Part shown: positions 35,499 through 60,818 of the stretch, one piece after another
Layout of the letters: each line of letters starts with the position of its first letter
Numbering within the stretch: the stretch's first letter is position 1
DNA from: Candidatus Limnocylindrales bacterium
Lineage (GTDB): Bacteria > Verrucomicrobiota > Verrucomicrobiia > Limisphaerales > UBA11358
Assembly (NCBI GenBank): GCA_035604955.1
Contig: DATNHM010000027.1
Location: forward strand, 2,202-66,201
Reading direction: 5' to 3'
DNA: 64,000 nucleotides
Translations under genes and position numbers: made by a program
Notes under the pieces: generated by a model
Told to the model about the DNA's origin: nothing
What the model saw: the letters and a program-made list of their open reading frames with translations, nothing else
Databases searched by the model: none

Positions 35499-36380
35499 TT
35501 ATTTGTGGCCGCCGTGCTGGCTGATCATGTCGGCGGCCTCCTTATACCATTTATCCGATTGAGCGCTGTAACCTTTGCCCACCGTCATTTGCAACGGCGT
35601 CCGGCCGGCGTTATCCTTTGCGTTTACATCCGCTCCATTGGCTAAAAGCAATTCCGTCGTATCCGGGGAACCGTTTAGCGCCGCGGAATGCAAAGGCGTT
35701 TCGCCATTATTTTCTTTCGCGTTCACATCCGCTCCATTGGCCAGCAGCAATTTTATTATGTCCGTGTGTCCCCTGGAGAATGCCGTCAGAAACAAAGGCG
35801 TCTCGCCCTTGTTGTTCCGGGCATTGACATCCAATCCTTTCGCCAGCAGCAATTCCGCCACGCCGGGATGAAAGAACCCTGCCGCAGCGTGTAACGGCGT
35901 ATTGCCATCCTTGTCCCGCACATTTAAATCGGCCCGATGTGCGAGCAACCATTTCACCATGTCCGTTTGACCATTTCTGATTGCCGCCAGCAGAGGCGTC
36001 TCGCCGGATTCGTCCTTGGCGTTGACATCCGCGCCTTTGGCAAAAAGCAGTTCTACAATCTCTTGGTGTCCCCACAGCGCCGCGCCAAGCAAAGGCGTTT
36101 GGCCGCTGTTGTTCGTGGCGCTGACATCGGCATTATTCGCCAGCAAAAATTCCACAACCTCTTTGCGATCGTAGAACGCCGCCAGATACAAAGGAGTGGT
36201 GCCGCGTAAATCCGGTCGGGGTTCCGTGTCCCGGCTGTTCACCAAATCGGAATTGGCTTTGAGCAGCGCCTTGACCTTTGCCAAATCACCACCCGCCGCT
36301 GCGTCATGAATCTCGCCGCAGAAGGCGAGAGTGCTCCAAAGCAATGCGACCAGCGGAACTGCAACAAGCTTCCGGTTCAT
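35499..36380 (-). CDS. secreted ankyrin-repeat protein
   Basis: Trimmed to the ATG at 36378-36380 (MNRKLVAVPLVALLWSTLAFC). About 8 ANK repeats (GxTPLHxAAxxGHxxxVxLLLxxGADVNA). Confidence 0.88.
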   Translation of the reverse strand: MNRKLVAVPLVALLWSTLAFCGEIHDAAAGGDLAKVKALLKANSDLVNSRDTEPRPDLRGTTPLYLAAFYDRKEVVEFLLANNADVSATNNSGQTPLLGAALWGHQEIVELLFAKGADVNAKDESGETPLLAAIRNGQTDMVKWLLAHRADLNVRDKDGNTPLHAAAGFFHPGVAELLLAKGLDVNARNNKGETPLFLTAFSRGHTDIIKLLLANGADVNAKENNGETPLHSAALNGSPDTTELLLANGADVNAKDNAGRTPLQMTVGKGYSAQSDKWYKEAADMISQHGGHK

Positions 36381-36426
36381 GGCTTGTGGGGATAGCCCGT
36401 TTGCGGGACATTGGCAAGCGTGACTT

Positions 36427-36495
36427 GTAGCAGCCGACATAAGTCGGCTCTATCTAAAAAATGAGCAGACTCATCCCGCATTGCGGGACTGCTAC
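36427..36495. repeat. GTAGCAG...CTGCTAC-bracketed double hairpin (copy G), with probable terminator function
   Basis: agccgac-ataa-gtcggct (36432-36449) and tcccgca-t-tgcggga (36474-36488). On the minus strand the second hairpin is followed by cattttttag. Confidence 0.75.
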
Positions 36496-48736: not shown

Positions 48737-51181
48737 ATGAGACAAGCCGCAGCTCAAATTTTCCTGGTGGGCAACAATCCGGAATTGCTGGCGACGCTGT
48801 CCGAGCTGCTGCGGGCGGACGATATCGCCATCCGGCTGGCGCCATCCGGTGGCGGGATTTTTGAAATGCTTCGCGACCAGCCCCCCGAACTGATTCTGCT
48901 GGATGGCGCGGATGTGGAATTACTGCAGGAACTCAAGGAAGTCCCGGCCACCCAGACCGTCCCCGTCATTGTGTTCCTGGCCGCGAATGCTCCGGCGGAG
49001 AAGGTTCGTGCGTTTGAACTGGGTGCGCACGACTGTGTGAGCCGGCCGTTTGAGGTCGCGGAACTCCGTGCCCGCCTCCACGCGGCGTTGAAAATCAAGC
49101 GGCAGTTTGGCGACTTGCTCCTGCGTCAGCGCGAGTTGATGTCAGCCCGGATTACCGCCGAATCCGCCGCGCGCGCGAAGGCAGATTTTCTGGCGGCCAT
49201 GAGCCATGAAATCCGCACGCCGATGAACGGCGTCGTGGCGATGGTCGGTCTGCTGCTCGAAACGCAGTTGACCGCCGAGCAGCGGGGCTACCTGGAAACG
49301 ATTCATGCGAGCAGCGAGGCCTTGCTCACCATCATCAATGACATCCTCGATTTTTCCAAAATTGAAGCCGGCAAACTGGAACTGGATTCGCGGCCGTTCG
49401 ACCTGCGCGCGTGCGTGGAAGAAACGCTGGACCTGATGGCCACGAAGGCATTCGAAAAGAATCTTGACCTGGTTTATCAGATGGACGGCGGGATTGTTTC
49501 GCTGGTGGAAGGCGACGCCTTGCGCCTGCGCCAGGTCCTGGTGAATCTTTTGAGCAACGGTATCAAGTTCACCAAGACCGGCGAGATTCTGGTGCAAATC
49601 AAATTACTTTCGGCCAAGGTGGAGGAACAACAAAATCGCTCCCTGTTGCACCTTCATTTTTCCGTGCGGGACACGGGGATTGGCATTCCGCCGGACCGCC
49701 TGGCGCGTTTGTTCAAACCCTTCATGCAGGCCGACGCCTCCACCGCGCATCGTTACGGCGGCACGGGACTGGGCCTGGCCATCAGCAAACAACTGGTCGA
49801 ACTGATGGGCGGCAAAATGTGGGCCGAGAGCGTGGCGGGTGAAGGCTCGACATTCCACTTCACCATCAACGTGCTGGCCCAACCGCAAACCGCCCTGTAC
49901 GCGCTGGCGGGCCGGCAGGATCAATTGGCGGGCCGGCCGGTGTTGATTGTGGACGACAACGCCACCAGCCGCCGCGCGCTGGCCGAACTGGTAACCCGGT
50001 GGGGGATGATTCCCCGCGACGTGGGGGACGCGCAGCAGGCAATGAATTTCCTCCGCGACGGCAATCAGGTTGATCTGGCGATTCTCGACGCGCAATTGCC
50101 GTACATGGATGGTTTCACTCTGGCCGGCGAAATTCATCGGTTGCCGCAGACGACCACACTGCCGCTGGTGTTGCTTACGCCGCTCGGGTGGCGCCGGGAA
50201 ACGCCCGCTGCCGCCTCCGACCCGTTCCTTGCTTTCGCCGTCAAGCCGGTCAAACCCGCGCAATTTTTTGAAACGTTGAACCGCGCCCTGTCCGATACCG
50301 ACCCCGCGCTGGAGCCGGCACCGCTGCCGGTTCAGACCCATCAAACGACTTTTGCCCGCCGTCAGCCATTGCGCATATTATTGTGCGACGACAACGCCAT
50401 CAATCAGAAGGTTGCCGTGCGCATCTTGCAGCAGTTGGGCTACGAGCCGGATTTGGCCGTCCATGGCCGGGAAGCCCTCGAGGCGCTTGACCGGAAGCCG
50501 TATGATTTGATTTTTATGGACGTGATGATGCCGGAAATGGACGGTTTGGAAGCGACGCGCGCGATTCGCGAGTTCCAAAAAGCCGGCGGGAAGGCCAATT
50601 ACAACTCCCGGATTATCATCGTTGCCATGACGGCGCAGGCGATGCAGGGCGACCGTGAGAAGTGCATCGCCGCGGGCATGGACGATTACCTTGCCAAACC
50701 CATTCGCCCGAAGGATGTCCGCACCGTCATCGAGCGCTGGAGTTCGGAGCTGGGTTCATCGGCCTTGGCCCAACCCGGGCTCCCGCCCGTCGCCGCCGCG
50801 CCGGACCCGGAAGCATCGCCGGTGGAAATGGATCGGCTGATGGATTTGGGGGGCGGGAACGCGGAAAGCCTTTGCGAGTTGGTGGAGCTTTACTTCAAAC
50901 AGACCCTCGGGCAACTTGCGCAATTGGAAACGGCGATTCAGGCGGACAAAGCCGAGGAAGTGCGCCAGGTGGCGCACAGTTGCGCCGGTGCCAGCGCCAC
51001 CCTGGGCATGACGCGACTGGTGCCGTTGTTGCGCGAATTGGAGCGGCAGGGCAAGACCGGCCGGTTGAGCAACGCGCAACAACTCTGCGCTGAGGCCCAG
51101 CGCGAATTCAGACGCACCCAGGATTTTCTGACGAAGCATCCGGCCCTGACCGGGCGGATTGCGACCACGGTGCATTCATGA
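48737..51181 (+). CDS. hybrid histidine kinase: degenerate REC - HisKA - HATPase - REC - REC - Hpt
   Basis: H-box is FLAAMSHEIRTPMNG and G-boxes are DTGIGI and GTGLGLAI. There are two receivers (ILDAQLPYMDG; FMDVMMPEMDG) and a C-terminal Hpt (QVAHSCAGASATLGM). Confidence 0.92.
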   Translation: MRQAAAQIFLVGNNPELLATLSELLRADDIAIRLAPSGGGIFEMLRDQPPELILLDGADVELLQELKEVPATQTVPVIVFLAANAPAEKVRAFELGAHDCVSRPFEVAELRARLHAALKIKRQFGDLLLRQRELMSARITAESAARAKADFLAAMSHEIRTPMNGVVAMVGLLLETQLTAEQRGYLETIHASSEALLTIINDILDFSKIEAGKLELDSRPFDLRACVEETLDLMATKAFEKNLDLVYQMDGGIVSLVEGDALRLRQVLVNLLSNGIKFTKTGEILVQIKLLSAKVEEQQNRSLLHLHFSVRDTGIGIPPDRLARLFKPFMQADASTAHRYGGTGLGLAISKQLVELMGGKMWAESVAGEGSTFHFTINVLAQPQTALYALAGRQDQLAGRPVLIVDDNATSRRALAELVTRWGMIPRDVGDAQQAMNFLRDGNQVDLAILDAQLPYMDGFTLAGEIHRLPQTTTLPLVLLTPLGWRRETPAAASDPFLAFAVKPVKPAQFFETLNRALSDTDPALEPAPLPVQTHQTTFARRQPLRILLCDDNAINQKVAVRILQQLGYEPDLAVHGREALEALDRKPYDLIFMDVMMPEMDGLEATRAIREFQKAGGKANYNSRIIIVAMTAQAMQGDREKCIAAGMDDYLAKPIRPKDVRTVIERWSSELGSSALAQPGLPPVAAAPDPEASPVEMDRLMDLGGGNAESLCELVELYFKQTLGQLAQLETAIQADKAEEVRQVAHSCAGASATLGMTRLVPLLRELERQGKTGRLSNAQQLCAEAQREFRRTQDFLTKHPALTGRIATTVHS

Positions 51182-52362
51182 AAAAAATTCTCATAATCGA
51201 AGATGATCAAATCATAGCGAACATCTACCGGAATAAATTCGCGACCGAAGGCTATCAGGCGGAGACGGCCTACGATGGCGAAAGCGGCTTGAAAAGCGTG
51301 AGGGCGTTTCAGCCCGACGTCATCCTGCTTGATCTCATGCTGCCCAGGATGTCGGGCGTGGATTTCATCATCCACATCCGCAGCGAGGCGGATTTTGTCA
51401 AGGTGCCCATTATCGTTTTTTCCAACACTTACCTGACCAATATGATTCAGGAAGCCTGGAAAGCCGGCGCGAACAAATGCCTCTCCAAGACCAATTGCAC
51501 GCCCAGAGACGTTCTGGAAGTTGTCCGCCAGACCATCGGCGCCAGCGGCTCCGTTCCGCGTGATCCCGCGGAGCGGACCACTTCGACCCCTTCCGCCCGG
51601 CCGAATTTCACCGATACCGAGGGGGACACAAAATTTCTAAACGAATTGCGGACGGCGTTTATTGAAGGCGAACCGGCCACGCTGGCGGCGTTGCGCAGCG
51701 GTTTGCAAAACCTCATCAAGGCGGACAACGAAGCCGTCCAGCTCAAGGACATCCACGAGCTTTACCGCCGCACCCATGCGCTCGCCGGCAACGCCGGCCT
51801 CGCCGGATTCGTTTATGTCTCGCAAATGTCCGCCGCCGTGGAGGCGTTGCTCAAGGAGCTTCACGAAAAACCGAAGAGCATCAATACCTCCACCCTGCGT
51901 ACCGTTGCGGCGGCCGTGGATTTTCTCGGTTTTCTCTTTGAACGCGGCAAGCAGCCGGATAATCCTGACCCGCCCGCCGTCAACATCCTCGTGGTGGACG
52001 ACGAGCCGATTTCGCAGCGTGCCGTGATTTATGCCCTGGAAAAGGCGCAGTTGCCTTCCACCAGCACCGCCGACCCCAACGCCGCCCTGAAATTGCTGAC
52101 GGAAAAAAAGTTCGACCTGGTGTTCCTGGACGTGGACATGCCGGGCATGACCGGTTTCGAACTCTGCACCAAGCTGCGCGCCATGCCGCAGTACAAGAAA
52201 ACTCCCGTTGTCTTTGTCACTGCGCTCAGCGATTTCGACAGCCGCACCAGTTCCATGATGGCCGGCGGCAACGATTTCATTGCCAAGCCGTTCCTGTTCA
52301 TCGAACTTACCGTCAAGGCCCTCATCCACGTCCTGCGGGCCAGGTTGCAACCGGCAAAATAA
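51178..52362 (+). CDS. response regulator REC - Hpt-like - REC
   Basis: ATGA overlap with the kinase stop. The N-terminal REC is ILIIEDD...ILLDLMLPRMSG. The central region is an Hpt-like helix bundle (THALAGNAGLAG). The C-terminal REC is ILVVDDE...VFLDVDMPGMTG...IAKPF. Confidence 0.88.
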   Translation: MKKILIIEDDQIIANIYRNKFATEGYQAETAYDGESGLKSVRAFQPDVILLDLMLPRMSGVDFIIHIRSEADFVKVPIIVFSNTYLTNMIQEAWKAGANKCLSKTNCTPRDVLEVVRQTIGASGSVPRDPAERTTSTPSARPNFTDTEGDTKFLNELRTAFIEGEPATLAALRSGLQNLIKADNEAVQLKDIHELYRRTHALAGNAGLAGFVYVSQMSAAVEALLKELHEKPKSINTSTLRTVAAAVDFLGFLFERGKQPDNPDPPAVNILVVDDEPISQRAVIYALEKAQLPSTSTADPNAALKLLTEKKFDLVFLDVDMPGMTGFELCTKLRAMPQYKKTPVVFVTALSDFDSRTSSMMAGGNDFIAKPFLFIELTVKALIHVLRARLQPAK

Positions 52363-52884: not shown

Positions 52885-53742
52885 CTAACCCGTCATTGAC
52901 CCGCTGAACATTTCCCTCGCGATCACGCCGTCGGCCACCTTGGCCACGGCGCCGGTCATGCGAATGGCATAATCGTTGCCAATCTCGATTTCAATGATGC
53001 CACCGGGCATGTGCACCGAAACCTCGCGGTCGCACAGGCCGAGCCGGTGCGCCACCGCCGCCGCCGCGCTACTGCTGCTGCCGCTCGCCAGGGTGTAGCC
53101 CGCGCCGCGTTCCCAGATTTCAATCTGGATGTTGTTCCGGTCAATCACCTTCATGAACTGCACGTTGGTGCGTTTGGGAAATCGCAGGTGCGTTTCCAGC
53201 AACGGCCCCATCTGCCTGGCAATTTCCGGGCTGATTTTTGACATCGGCAGCACGCAATGCGGATTGCCCACGGTGGCCGCGCAGAAATTGAATCGTTCGC
53301 CGCGCAGATGAATCGGTTCGTTGATGACCTCGCGGCGCGGACCGGCCACGGGAATCTCGTCGCTCCAAAAACTGACCTTGCCCATCTCCACGCGCACAAT
53401 TTTGCCGCGTTCCGTGACCGTGGCCTTCACCAGGCCTCCGGCGGTTTCGACGGCGAACTCGTCCTTGCCGACCAGTTTCTTGTCCCACAGGTAACGCGAA
53501 AAAATCCGGAGGCCGTTGCCGCTCTTTTCCGCCTCGCTGCCGTCGGGATTGAAAATGCGGACCGCGAACTTCGCGTTTTTGGAGGGCAGGGGACCGAGCA
53601 GAATGCCGTCCGATCCGATGCCGTAATTGCGATGGCAAATCGTCTTGATCTGCGCGGCTGTCAGCGGCGCCGGCAGGTTCTTCGGGTCAATGACGATGTA
53701 GTCGTTGCCAAGCCCGTGATATTTGGTAAAGGCCCACAGCAT
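52885..53742 (-). CDS. diaminopimelate epimerase homolog with both catalytic Cys replaced by Ser
   Basis: The DapF motifs HGLGNDY, GNPH and ERGAG are present. The two catalytic positions read EKSGNG (AGC at 53521-53523) and LASGSS (AGC) instead of CGNG and ACGSG. Confidence 0.85.
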   Translation of the reverse strand: MLWAFTKYHGLGNDYIVIDPKNLPAPLTAAQIKTICHRNYGIGSDGILLGPLPSKNAKFAVRIFNPDGSEAEKSGNGLRIFSRYLWDKKLVGKDEFAVETAGGLVKATVTERGKIVRVEMGKVSFWSDEIPVAGPRREVINEPIHLRGERFNFCAATVGNPHCVLPMSKISPEIARQMGPLLETHLRFPKRTNVQFMKVIDRNNIQIEIWERGAGYTLASGSSSSAAAAVAHRLGLCDREVSVHMPGGIIEIEIGNDYAIRMTGAVAKVADGVIAREMFSGSMTG

Positions 53743-53812: not shown

Positions 53813-54805
53813 TTAACTTTTCAGTATGGCCTCAATTTTCCGAAGTTCTTCGGCGCCCAAAGTCAGATGGTTCAATGTGCCGACGGCGTCTTCGATTTGC
53901 GCGACGCGGCTGGCGCCGACCAGCGCGGAGGTCATTCCCGGATGGCGCAGCGCCCAGGCCAGCGCCATTTGAGCCAGCGTCTGGCCACGCGCCCTGGCCA
54001 GTTCGTCCAGCTGTTTTACCCTGGCAATTTTCGCGGGGGTAACGTGTTCCGGCCGCAGAAAACCATGCGGTTTGGAAGCGCGGGAGCCTTTGGGAATGCC
54101 GTCAAGGTACTTGTCCGTCAACAAGCCTTGCGCCAGCGGCGAGAACACGATGCAACCGATGCCTTCCTGCGCGAGTGTTTCCAGCAGCCCGTCTTCGATC
54201 CCGCGGTTGAACATGTTGTAGGACGGCTGATGAATGAGACACGGCGTGCCCAGCGTGCGAAGCATTTGCGCGGCCTGGCGGGTCGGCGCTGGCGGATAGT
54301 TGGAAATGCCCGCGTACAATGCCCGCCCGCTGCGCACAATGAAATCCAGCGCGCCCATCGTTTCCTCCAGGGGCGTGTCGGGGTCGGGCCGGTGGGAATA
54401 AAAGATGTCCACGTAATCCAGTTTCATCCGCTTTAAACTTTGGTCGAGGCTGGCCACCAGATACTTGCGCGAACCCCATTCGCCGTAAGGCCCCGGCCAC
54501 ATCAAATAACCCGCCTTGGTGGAGAGGATCAGTTCGTCGCGGTAAGGCTTCAAATCACTGCGGTAAATGCGTCCGAAATGCTCCTCCGCCGAACCCGGCG
54601 GCGGTCCGTAATTGTTCGCCAGATCGAAATGCGTGATGCCCAAATCGAACGCGCGGCGCACCATTTTCCGGCCGTTGTCAAAGCTGTCCACGCCGCCAAA
54701 GTTATGCCAGAGACCGAGCGAAATGGCGGGAAGCTTGAGACCGCTGCGGCCGCAGCGGTTGTAGCGCATGCCTTGATAACGTGAATCCGATGGCGAATAT
54801 TTCAT
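53813..54805 (-). CDS. aldo/keto reductase (YghZ/Tas-like)
   Basis: Trimmed to the ATG at 54803-54805 (MKYSPSDSRYQGMRYNRCGRSGLKLPAISLGLWHNFG). The AKR catalytic D/Y/K/H pattern is present. Confidence 0.9.
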   Translation of the reverse strand: MKYSPSDSRYQGMRYNRCGRSGLKLPAISLGLWHNFGGVDSFDNGRKMVRRAFDLGITHFDLANNYGPPPGSAEEHFGRIYRSDLKPYRDELILSTKAGYLMWPGPYGEWGSRKYLVASLDQSLKRMKLDYVDIFYSHRPDPDTPLEETMGALDFIVRSGRALYAGISNYPPAPTRQAAQMLRTLGTPCLIHQPSYNMFNRGIEDGLLETLAQEGIGCIVFSPLAQGLLTDKYLDGIPKGSRASKPHGFLRPEHVTPAKIARVKQLDELARARGQTLAQMALAWALRHPGMTSALVGASRVAQIEDAVGTLNHLTLGAEELRKIEAILKS

Positions 54806-54851
54806 GGCGTTTTGTCTGATGAGAACACGGGTGTGCGCGTGAAGCTCCATT

Positions 54852-55229
54852 CTAAACCCTGGTGTCTTTATCCTTCCCCTGATCACGCCGGCTTTCCTCC
54901 AGATGAAACTTGTGGAGGAACCGGTGGAAGACCGGCGCAAAAATAATTCCGAGACTCGTGATGAACGCCAGCCCGCTGAAGAGGGCGTAGCAACCGGCGA
55001 AAATCTTGCCGCCATCGGCTTGCAGTGACGACACCGGCCCCATACCGGACAAAATCATCGCCGCGTTGACAAAGGCATCCACCCATGACATGGGCTCAAA
55101 ATAGCGGTAACCGGCCATCCCGATGCCCAGCGCAAACACGACGAGCAAGGCGGCAATGGCCGTGCTGCGCGCCAGGCGCCTGTAAAATTCCCGGCGCGGC
55201 AACAGCGGTTTTGAACGATGCTCGAACAT
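54852..55229 (-). CDS. two-TM ion-channel-like membrane protein with a degenerate selectivity-filter region
   Basis: Trimmed to the ATG at 55227-55229. TM1, then pore-helix-like SWVDAFVNAAMILSGMGP, then TM2. No TVGYG filter is present. Confidence 0.5.
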   Translation of the reverse strand: MFEHRSKPLLPRREFYRRLARSTAIAALLVVFALGIGMAGYRYFEPMSWVDAFVNAAMILSGMGPVSSLQADGGKIFAGCYALFSGLAFITSLGIIFAPVFHRFLHKFHLEESRRDQGKDKDTRV

Positions 55230-58614: not shown

Positions 58615-60678
58615 TTAAGATTGGCGGCGGACGACTTCGGGCGCGGTTTCCATGCCGGGATGCGACTGGCCATCCATGTCCTCCGCTTGTGGAGCTTGTG
58701 GAGCGTTGGCACGTTCGACAATTTTGCGATACGTCGCCAGCGCCAGCAGCGGCCAGGCGTTGCGGTACATGTCGTATTTCAAATAGAACACCTTGGGGAA
58801 ACCAGTGCCGGTGGTTTCGTGCTCCGTCCATGAGCCGTCGGGGTTTTGCGTGCGTGCCAGATATTCGATGCCGCGCTTGAGATAGGGATTGTCCGGGTCG
58901 TCGAACGCGCACAGGCCCATGACGGCCCAGGCGGTCTGCGACGCTGTACTCGGACCGCGCGCCTTGAAGACCGGGTCATCGTAGGTGTTGCAACGTTCAC
59001 CCCAGCCGCCGTCTTCGTGCTGGACGCTTTCGAGCCAGTGACGCGCCTTGAGCAGCCACGGCTGGTTCATGTCCAGGTTCATCGCGCGCAGGCCGCGCAA
59101 CACCTGCCACGTGCCGTAAACGTAATTCACGCCCCAGCGGCCGTACCAGGAGCCGTCAGGTTCCTGTTGGGAGCGGATGTAATCGAGCGCCTTTTTCACG
59201 CGCGCATGATTCACCCGGAAATTCTCGGCGCCGAGCAATTCCAGAATGCGCGCGGTGATGTCGGCGCATTCGGGGTCGAGCATGGCGTTGTGATCGGCGA
59301 ACGGGACCTTTTCCAGGATGTTCTTGGTGCAATCCTTGTCGAATGCCGCCCAGCCGCCGTCCTTGCACTGGAAGGTCAGCATCCAGGTCAAGCCGCGCTG
59401 GAAACACTCGTCGCGCCGGTTCGGATGATCAGTAGGAATCTTGCGGAGCGCGAGCAGCACCATGGCCGTGTCGTCCACGTCCGGGTTCCATTGATTATTA
59501 AATTCAAAGACCCAGCCGCTCGGTTCGACGCGTGTGGGATTTTTGTGATGCCAATCGCCGCGAATGCGGATTTCCCGGTCCATCAGCCAGGTGGCGGCCT
59601 TTTTCAGGGCGGGATGGTTTTCGGAGATGCCCGATTCGTGCAGGGCAATGATGACGTACGAGGTGTCCCACACCGGCGAGAAACACGGTTCGATGCGCAC
59701 ATCGTCATCGGTTTCGTGCTCAAGTTTCTTCAATTCGTGCGTGGCGCGGACCACTTCCGGGTGGTCGTCGGGATAGCCCAGTGACTGGAGCGCGATGAGC
59801 GAATTGAGCATCGCCGGGAAAATTGCCGCCAGCCCGTCCGAATGTTCGAACCGTTCGAGCATCCATTGCTCGCATTTCCGCAAGGCGCGCTTGCGGAACG
59901 GATGGATTTTGTGTTCGGCAAACCATTCGGCGAATTTGTGCAACCGGTCGAGCCAGAGAAAGAAATTCCGCCACGACAACGCGTCCGGGTCGGGCGCGAG
60001 GGCGAGGTCGCGTTCATGCAGGCCTTCAGGATACAGCTCGTCCAGGTCCACCTTGACCGGGCGGGTGGGTTTGAAATGGTTGATGATGGCCAGCGGGACG
60101 AGCATGGCGCGCGACCAGTTGCTCATGTCCCAAAAATTCACGTGGAACCATTTGCCCAGCATCATCACCTCACAGGGGATGGTGGGCACGTATTCCCAGG
60201 AATAAAGCCCGAGCAGGGCGAGATACAGCTTGGCGAAGGTGTTCATGCGCGGCACGCCACCGAGGTGCAATGCCACTTCGCGGGCGCGCAGCATGCGGGG
60301 GTCGGTCTCCGGGACGCCGGCGAGTTTGAGCGCGAGATACGCCTTGATGGTGGCGTTCACGTCCGACGGGCCGCCGTGATAGATGTTCCAGCCGCCGTCG
60401 GGCAATTGCATGGAAAAGATGTGATTGACGGCCTTGCGCTGCCACTCGCGGTCAATTTTGCCATGCCAATGGTGGTACGCCACCGTGTCCGACACGAGCG
60501 TGGAATCCACCATCAGTTCGCCGATCCAGTAGCCTTCGGGCTTCTGCAGGCCCAAAAGGTGCTCCTGCGACCGCAGAATGGCCGTCTCGATCTCTCTCTC
60601 AAAGTCCGTTTGAAGCCGGGCCGACCGGGGCGACTGCGTCGTCTGAACCCTTGATTCGCTTTCAGTCAACACGCCCAT
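58615..60678 (-). CDS. shc: squalene-hopene cyclase
   Basis: Trimmed to the ATG at 60676-60678. It has QW repeats, the DVDDTAMV (DxDD) motif and GGWG motifs. Confidence 0.93.
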   Translation of the reverse strand: MGVLTESESRVQTTQSPRSARLQTDFEREIETAILRSQEHLLGLQKPEGYWIGELMVDSTLVSDTVAYHHWHGKIDREWQRKAVNHIFSMQLPDGGWNIYHGGPSDVNATIKAYLALKLAGVPETDPRMLRAREVALHLGGVPRMNTFAKLYLALLGLYSWEYVPTIPCEVMMLGKWFHVNFWDMSNWSRAMLVPLAIINHFKPTRPVKVDLDELYPEGLHERDLALAPDPDALSWRNFFLWLDRLHKFAEWFAEHKIHPFRKRALRKCEQWMLERFEHSDGLAAIFPAMLNSLIALQSLGYPDDHPEVVRATHELKKLEHETDDDVRIEPCFSPVWDTSYVIIALHESGISENHPALKKAATWLMDREIRIRGDWHHKNPTRVEPSGWVFEFNNQWNPDVDDTAMVLLALRKIPTDHPNRRDECFQRGLTWMLTFQCKDGGWAAFDKDCTKNILEKVPFADHNAMLDPECADITARILELLGAENFRVNHARVKKALDYIRSQQEPDGSWYGRWGVNYVYGTWQVLRGLRAMNLDMNQPWLLKARHWLESVQHEDGGWGERCNTYDDPVFKARGPSTASQTAWAVMGLCAFDDPDNPYLKRGIEYLARTQNPDGSWTEHETTGTGFPKVFYLKYDMYRNAWPLLALATYRKIVERANAPQAPQAEDMDGQSHPGMETAPEVVRRQS

Positions 60679-60818
60679 ACTTTGCGGGGTTAACGGGAGA
60701 CTGTAAAGATTTTTAGTCGCCGGCCGGCACACCATAAGAAACTTAAATTTTTGTGTTGGACAAACCTGGCAAATTCTCCTAGTTGATGAATCGGCGATTG
60801 GACAGACACCAACAAGCC

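Follow-up and report, generated by a model that had tools for sequence, protein, structure and literature searches.

Diaminopimelate (DAP) epimerase (DapF; EC 5.1.1.7), an enzyme of lysine and cell wall synthesis, is a model for the removal of a very weakly acidic Cα proton without a cofactor. The published mechanism requires a thiol/thiolate pair, and both recent specialist papers and a review take the pair of catalytic cysteines as the rule (PMC12039745, PMC8142540). The only exceptions given in the review are Cys/Thr pairs, and these occur in other families (PMC8142540). Here, we analyzed a 64,000-nucleotide stretch of contig DATNHM010000027.1 (assembly GCA_035604955.1), referred to below as the window, whose source organism is a Limisphaerales-type member of Verrucomicrobiota. 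One gene of the window encodes a DapF-family protein with serine at both catalytic positions (Ser/Ser). By sequence family the protein is a DapF homolog, yet it is not a canonical two-thiol DapF. We consider it likely that this gene is the organism's dapF and that its product is a functional LL/meso-DAP epimerase in which a pair of serines stands in for the thiols.

The open reading frame (ORF) carries HGLGNDY, FNPDGSEAEKSGNG, GNPH, and ERGAGYTLASGSS, which match the motifs quoted in an earlier reading made from the DNA letters alone (the sequence-only reading). Its product matched the Pfam family DAP_epimerase (PF01678) in two stretches (E = 4e-60; 201.6 bits versus a cutoff of 34.7) and the NCBIfam DapF equivalog TIGR00652 over residues 4 to 275 (247.1 bits versus a cutoff of 114.65). 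Identity to DapF proteins of solved structure, namely those from Anabaena (9mro), P. aeruginosa (8qzy), Arabidopsis (3ejx), A. baumannii (5ha4), E. coli, and H. influenzae, was 36 to 40%. In an AlphaFold2 (AF2) model of the protein (predicted local distance difference test score [pLDDT], 96.8; predicted template-modeling score [pTM], 0.93), the two-domain architecture of DapF is present, with pseudo-symmetric α/β domains and two central helices directed toward the active site. The top 18 Foldseek matches of this model were all DapF (template-modeling [TM] scores of 0.82 to 0.92), and comparison with the closed form of Anabaena DapF (9mro) gave TM scores of 0.90 to 0.92. Helices 75 to 87 and 221 to 233 of the model begin right after Ser74 and Ser220, respectively, which are the helix N-terminal sites of the canonical thiols.

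The catalytic columns were placed by HMMER alignments to the DapF structures 9mro, 8qzy, 3ejx, 5ha4, and 4ik0 (E. coli). In every structure alignment, E-x-C-G-N-G corresponded to SEAEK-S74-GNG of the query, and T-x-A-C-G-(T/S)-G corresponded to YTLA-S220-GSS. The defining feature of DapF, the Cys73/Cys217 thiol/thiolate pair, is absent, and Ser74 and Ser220 are present instead. The sequence-only reading had claimed that both catalytic cysteines are replaced by serine, each encoded by AGC, and had proposed an alignment to curated DapF sequences as a check. The alignments to solved DapF structures confirmed both columns, and reading of the codons confirmed the AGC triplets. Misalignment of the catalytic columns was also considered and was rejected on the basis of the structure-based alignments and the residue map.

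Serine at both positions is the property of a large group of proteins. All of the closest database homologs (120/120; 80 to 94% identity), which derive from metagenome-assembled genomes (MAGs) of Verrucomicrobiota/Limisphaerales, were Ser/Ser. The same held for 344 of 346 further homologs retrieved with Verrucomicrobiales and Opitutaceae queries; in the remaining two, one motif was not located. When 1.84 billion cluster representatives were searched exhaustively with HMMER, 125 of the best 150 representatives of 50%-identity clusters were Ser/Ser, down to ∼38% identity, and only four were Cys/Cys. In a collection holding one genome per prokaryotic species, at least 596 matches were confirmed, and each of the 80 loci retrieved was Ser/Ser. 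These loci belonged mostly to Verrucomicrobiota (subdivision 3/Limisphaerales, Opitutaceae, and Verrucomicrobiales), with scattered loci labeled Desulfobacterales, Polyangiaceae, Anaeromyxobacter, Anaerolineae, Pirellulales, Nostoc, and Aphanothece. An Opitutaceae-profile search found the Ser/Ser protein in cultured strains as well, namely Opitutaceae bacterium TAV1, TAV5 (AHF89550.1), and Opitutus sp. ER46, whereas a search from a Verrucomicrobiales sequence yielded MAG proteins only. The phylogenetic survey proposed in the sequence-only reading thus returned a very widespread form, found mostly in Verrucomicrobiota. That reading had also argued that sequencing error is unlikely, which proved an understatement, as the Ser/Ser form constitutes a deep clade with hundreds of species.

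Pairwise ratios of nonsynonymous to synonymous substitution rates (dN/dS) against orthologs were 0.08 to 0.22, corresponding to strong purifying selection. Over 78 loci, the serine codon at site 1 was AGY in 57 and TCN in 21, while site 2 was AGY in 33 and TCN in 45. Moving between AGY and TCN is possible only by way of Thr or Cys or by a double hit. The presence of both codon classes at both sites therefore indicates that serine has been actively maintained over a long time. In a neighbor-joining tree, a crude method whose topology is tentative, the Ser/Ser sequences formed one clade adjoining the plant/cyanobacterial-type Cys/Cys DapF. A few S/C, T/C, C/S, S/T, and A/S forms and one C/C form were nested within the Ser/Ser clade or placed near its base. 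These nested forms suggest that Ser, Thr, and Cys can replace one another at the catalytic positions, and the rare mixed forms could be evolutionary intermediates. Individual cases are an S/C protein on a 1.6-Mb contig (P0179), a T/C protein (P0148), a C/S protein (P0246), and an S/T protein (P0147).

Two cyanobacterial records, from Nostoc sp. CCY 9925 (L042) and an Aphanothece MAG (L030), contain a Ser/Ser gene that shares 65 to 67% identity with its Verrucomicrobial counterpart, whereas a Cys/Cys DapF is the norm in cyanobacteria. These Ser/Ser genes could be the result of horizontal transfer or of contamination or mis-binning. In the Nostoc record, the gene adjoins a lytic transglycosylase-like gene.

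Residue conservation was compared between 75 diverse Ser/Ser representatives, whose mean column identity was 40%, and nine Cys/Cys enzymes. Ser74 and Ser220 were invariant in all 75 representatives, and His162 and Glu211 were invariant or nearly so. All residues that touch DAP in the structures from Anabaena, H. influenzae, and Arabidopsis (PMC12039745) are kept: Asn13, Gly46, Asn65, Gly75-Asn76, Asn160, Asn193, Glu211-Arg212, and Gly221-Ser222. Leaving Gly46 aside and adding His162, this set corresponds to canonical Asn11, Asn64, Gly74-Asn75, Asn157, Asn190, Glu208-Arg209, Gly218-Ser/Thr219, and His159. The His and Glu pair has been described as essential for epimerase activity (PMC5885031), and the Glu-Arg pair binds the distal amino and carboxylate groups of DAP in Anabaena DapF (PMC12039745). 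In addition to Ser74, Ser220, and Ile80, the conserved differences specific to the clade were Gln195, Ile209, Tyr216, Ser223, Met245, and Val266 (see the table for Ile80 and Tyr216); at the column of Tyr216, Cys/Cys enzymes have Glu, Ile, Ala, Pro, or Gln. The active-site helix region of the Ser/Ser clade has systematically lost its thiols, Cys79 being replaced as well.

ORF clustering around 83 loci identified no conserved neighbor of the gene across Verrucomicrobiota beyond local synteny; thus, genomic context within the window's own lineage is uninformative. The informative contexts were gene fusions and two deltaproteobacterial-type MAGs. A DapF(Ser/Ser)-MurE fusion of 808 residues was full length in six cluster members and was encoded by a single ORF on two independent metagenome contigs. 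Its MurE part matched TIGR01085 (451 bits) and the meso-DAP-adding equivalog NF001126 (433.6 bits versus a cutoff of 373). LysA-DapF(Ser/Ser) fusions scored 360 and 410 bits against the LysA equivalog TIGR01048 (cutoff of 297.9), and fusions of alanine racemase (Alr) to DapF(Ser/Ser) were also present. In a Polyangiaceae MAG (L045), a Ser/Ser dapF is followed, after a gap of 3 nucleotides (nt), by dapL (TIGR03542; 545.6 bits versus a cutoff of 364.7) and then by a LysA-like gene (256 bits, slightly below the LysA cutoff). A second locus (L079) shows gene sizes and spacing as in this dapF-dapL-lysA operon. DapL makes LL-DAP, while LysA and MurE consume meso-DAP, and the epimerase is the only step between them. 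The fusion and operon partners DapL, LysA, and MurE thus place the Ser/Ser DapF of these relatives in the meso-DAP pathway. The fusion records are P0137 (L085:127-2553 and L086:662-3088), P0127 (L084:8001-10211), P0138, P0144, P0167, P0220, P0129, and P0184, the last two joining the Ser/Ser DapF to a gamma-glutamyl cyclotransferase-like domain and to a class I methyltransferase, respectively.

Taken together, these sequence comparisons describe a clade of the DapF family with Ser/Ser at the catalytic positions, whose function is most likely that of DapF. LL-DAP and meso-DAP would be interconverted by the usual two-base 1,1-proton transfer after domain closure around DAP. The roles of base and acid would fall to Ser74 and Ser220, one serine acting as an alkoxide base and the other as a hydroxyl acid. 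Alkoxides are more basic than thiolates, and the hard part is forming the alkoxide. Candidate means of activating the serines include the helix dipoles, backbone NH groups, desolvation on closure, and His162/Glu211; the second shell of the clade (Ile80, Gln195, Ile209, Tyr216, Ser223, Met245, and Val266) may also contribute. More broadly, the balance of the evidence leans toward a whole natural clade of cofactor-independent amino acid epimerases being thiol free. This clade would provide the housekeeping DapF of most Verrucomicrobiota and many other bacteria, with the Ser/Ser pair performing the two-base Cα proton transfer in a manner insensitive to oxidation and to thiol-directed inhibitors, such as aziridino-DAP. 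The textbook two-thiol mechanism is probably not the sole way for this enzyme class.

A likely benefit of the serine pair would be the avoidance of inactivation by disulfide formation, oxidation, or thiol-reactive compounds. Three cysteines have been removed systematically, which hints at selection against oxidation of thiols, given that canonical DapF can be inactivated by an internal disulfide (PDB entry 5h2g, "oxidized DapF"); this is speculation, since the clade also occurs in anaerobes.

Several observations weigh against a serine-based DAP epimerase. When cysteine was changed to serine in the laboratory, in DapF or in related enzymes, catalysis was described as hindered (PMC12039745, PMC11602996). 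The neighbors of dapF within the window (DUF3592, aldo/keto reductase, pyrD/pyrK, an AI-2E transporter, squalene-hopene cyclase, and a two-component pair) are unrelated housekeeping genes. No second dapF was found within the 64-kb window, and the genome outside it may hold a canonical dapF, a pyridoxal phosphate (PLP)-dependent DapF2, or Ddh. Published genome surveys, by contrast, fit a single epimerase: Lacunisphaera limnophila IG16b (Opitutaceae) has the DapL pathway, one named DapF, and DAP detected in its cells (PMC5303756), and in Verrucomicrobium spinosum DapL is the sole route, with no Ddh activity and one dapF (PMC3390587). The Ser/Ser type of the single DapF in these two organisms (WP_069963382.1 and VspiD_010100011375, respectively) was not confirmed, and the Lacunisphaera protein was not recovered by the Opitutaceae-sequence profile that found TAV1, TAV5, and ER46. 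The lineages of the Pseudomonas syringae group and of Nostoc sp. CCY 9925 presumably have a canonical DapF beside the Ser/Ser gene. In the P. syringae group (L001:5048-11375, L002, and L003), the Ser/Ser DapF paralog (P0298) is 41% identical to the window protein and belongs to an operon encoding a ferredoxin, a heme-oxygenase-like oxidase (PF14518), a 2OG-Fe oxygenase (PF10014), ThiF, an aminotransferase, a semialdehyde dehydrogenase, the DapF-like protein, and GNAT, followed by a LuxR-type regulator. This operon resembles a biosynthetic cluster, and at least some Ser/Ser members may do something else. Its identification as the mangotoxin (mbo) cluster or as a belactosin/hormaomycin cluster was rejected, as the published clusters differ; the DapF homologs of the latter two are BelM and HrmT.

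Alternatively, the window protein could bind DAP with very weak catalysis or none, as a pseudoenzyme, a regulator, or a scaffold, with epimerization left to a Cys/Cys paralog, a PLP-dependent DapF2/Alr2-like enzyme, or Ddh. A parallel is E. coli DapF, which has a second role as an activator of RppH; the complex of the two has been solved (6d13). In addition, a PLP-dependent family of Alr-like DAP epimerases exists (bioRxiv 10.1101/2024.10.14.618325), and an Alr-type domain is joined to the Ser/Ser domain in some of the fusions. Moreover, Cys-to-Ser substitutions are chosen in the laboratory exactly because catalysis suffers, and the search for a second dapF covered the 64-kb window only. A dead site would be expected to drift, however, whereas the two serines, His162, and Glu211 are held (nearly) invariant at a mean column identity of 40%, and the serines survive AGY/TCN codon switches. 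Both the dapF-dapL-lysA operon and the fusions to MurE and to LysA point to the middle catalytic step, and the two Verrucomicrobia genome surveys name one dapF and no Ddh (PMC5303756, PMC3390587), subject to the unconfirmed Ser/Ser type noted above. We therefore regard loss of catalysis as unlikely. Growth complementation of an E. coli dapF mutant would be a poor test of the matter, because growth of E. coli is not impaired by deletion of dapF (bioRxiv 10.1101/2024.10.14.618325). An error of sequencing or assembly, or a pseudogene in decay, has in its favor just the prior that two catalytic residues are missing. With an intact, full-length ORF, a very confident structure model, hundreds of independent sequences sharing the same two serines, and low dN/dS values, this explanation is refuted for all practical purposes.

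The sequence-only reading had left two alternatives, an epimerase with an unusual mechanism and a DapF-fold enzyme with a different chemistry. The former is favored by the retained DAP-binding residues, the MurE, LysA, and Alr fusions, the dapF-dapL-lysA operon, and purifying selection. The latter, an altered chemistry or substrate, would make the protein an eliminase or dehydratase or an epimerase of a DAP analog (lanthionine or a secondary-metabolite intermediate). There is precedent in the proline racemase family, in which a Cys-to-Thr change turns an epimerase into a dehydratase (PMC8142540); Anabaena DapF already accepts lanthionine (PMC12039745), and the P. syringae paralog lies within the biosynthetic-cluster-like operon. 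However, the DAP-contact residues are unchanged, and DAP, by established chemistry, lacks a β leaving group for elimination. The match to the Pro_racemase family (PF05544) was below threshold (16.9 bits versus a cutoff of 27), with a pocket of the DAP type, and the fusion and operon partners make LL-DAP or use meso-DAP. In Verrucomicrobiota, furthermore, the gene behaves like a widespread single-copy housekeeping gene. A changed reaction thus appears quite improbable, and an LL/meso-DAP epimerase with a serine pair is the reading that we prefer.

A large, conserved Ser/Ser clade belonging to the DAP pathway would demonstrate that oxygen bases suffice for this reaction, and its compensating residues would form a natural series for study. 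DapF is a target for antibacterials, and its best mechanism-based inhibitors act by alkylating the cysteines. Such inhibitors should fail against Ser/Ser enzymes. With regard to physiology, the serine pair may explain the avoidance of the disulfide inactivation known from canonical DapF. Annotation pipelines and active-site rules label Ser/Ser proteins as DapF and miss the absence of the catalytic cysteines; depending on whether the proteins prove active as epimerases, either the rule or the annotation is due for revision. We found no description of a natural Ser/Ser DapF in the full-text literature, a search that left subscription-only papers outside its scope, so that prior notice is possible. 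GapMind 2026 was considered as a prior report and rejected, as it concerns the PLP-dependent DapF2 and a catalytic serine of another enzyme.

Table 1. Coordinates of the Ser/Ser dapF gene, its key residues, and other annotated genes of the window
Feature	Position	Strand	Description
Ser/Ser DapF-family gene	52885..53742	minus	Complete ORF, 285 aa; ATG 53740..53742, stop 52885..52887
N-terminal DAP_epimerase domain, residues 5-126	53365..53730	minus	Best Pfam stretch; includes Asn13, Gly46, Asn65, the SEAEK-S74-GNG loop, and the helix start
Ser74, codon AGC	53521..53523	minus	Catalytic Cys73 of E. coli/H. influenzae, Cys75 of Anabaena (HMMER alignments)
Ile80	53503..53505	minus	Replaces the third conserved cysteine, Cys79 (GNGxRC); Ile in 95% of Ser/Ser representatives, Cys in 8/9 Cys/Cys references
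His162	53257..53259	minus	E. coli His159; retained
Glu211-Arg212	53107..53112	minus	Glu208-Arg209; retained
Tyr216, in ERGAG-Y-T	53095..53097	minus	Tyr in 80% of Ser/Ser representatives, 0/9 Cys/Cys references
Ser220, codon AGC	53083..53085	minus	Catalytic Cys217 of E. coli, Cys224 of Anabaena (HMMER alignments)
Ankyrin-repeat protein	35499..36440		313 aa
Hybrid histidine kinase and overlapping receiver protein	48737..52362		Kinase with HisKA, HATPase, three receiver stretches, Hpt; 394-aa protein with two receiver domains
Aldo/keto reductase ORF	53813..55015		400 aa as listed
Squalene-hopene cyclase	58615..60735		Both Pfam domains, E=1e-106 to 1e-141

Further observations concern the surroundings of dapF in the window and in related genomes. 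The squalene-hopene cyclase gene is syntenic with dapF in 13 loci, including the window, mostly in Limisphaerales-type genomes. The N-terminal ∼95 residues of the listed aldo/keto reductase ORF have no Pfam match; its true start probably lies at an internal Met (MKYSPSD...), in which case the intergenic gap would be longer. The hybrid histidine kinase gene overlaps by 4 nt that of a 394-residue protein with two receiver domains and no Pfam-recognized output domain. Opitutaceae loci (L044, L048, L050, L056, L063, L064, L072, L073, and L081) share a conserved gene for a protein of ∼500 residues on the same strand as dapF, located ∼60 nt upstream of dapF in the loci with measurable spacing.

With respect to known systems, the window protein is most readily compared with canonical DapF. 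The two have in common the two-domain fold, the DAP-binding residues (including those equivalent to His159 and Glu208), catalytic sites at helix N termini, and, among relatives of the window protein, the partners DapL, LysA, and MurE. They differ in that canonical DapF has Cys73/Cys217 and Cys79 where the window protein has Ser/Ser and Ile, and in the second shell. The bifunctional DapF/glutamate racemase of chlamydiae is likewise a variant of DapF found in the PVC superphylum, and its pocket is remodeled (PMC5885031). It keeps and needs both cysteines, however, whereas the pocket of the window protein is not remodeled, and the match to the corresponding family NF038284 reached only 64.1 bits against a cutoff of 350. 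The O-ureidoserine racemase DcsC is also a poorer match, with 121.5 bits for structure 7vdy versus 175 to 197 bits for DapF structures. DapF2 (Alr2-like) of Staphylococcus offers another noncanonical solution to DAP epimerization (bioRxiv 10.1101/2024.10.14.618325), although it has an unrelated fold and depends on PLP, while the window protein is a true DapF homolog.

Other systems resemble the window protein in the loss of a catalytic cysteine. trans-3-Hydroxy-L-proline dehydratase, a Cys-to-Thr enzyme, has a related fold (Foldseek matches 4k7g and 6r76; TM score of ∼0.74), and its cysteine loss alters the outcome of the reaction. Its substrate carries a β-hydroxyl leaving group, which DAP does not, and identity of the window protein to 4k7g and 6r76 is ∼14%. 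The H. influenzae DapF mutants C73S and C217S (PDB entries 2q9h and 2q9j) and the C-to-S mutants of HisR and CntK have serine at a catalytic cysteine site within the same fold. These substitutions are single and engineered, have been described as hindering catalysis, and were used to trap the open form. In the window clade, by contrast, both sites are serine, the replacement is natural, the surroundings have coevolved, and purifying selection is strong. The Cys/Thr Asp/Glu racemases EcL-DER and MMP0739 have a natural hydroxyl residue at a catalytic cysteine position, are cofactor independent, and still work (PMC8142540). They belong to another fold and superfamily, and the replacement of one of the two cysteines renders their conversion unidirectional, whereas both are replaced in the window protein. 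Thus, these racemases provide a precedent for a hydroxyl residue at one catalytic position.

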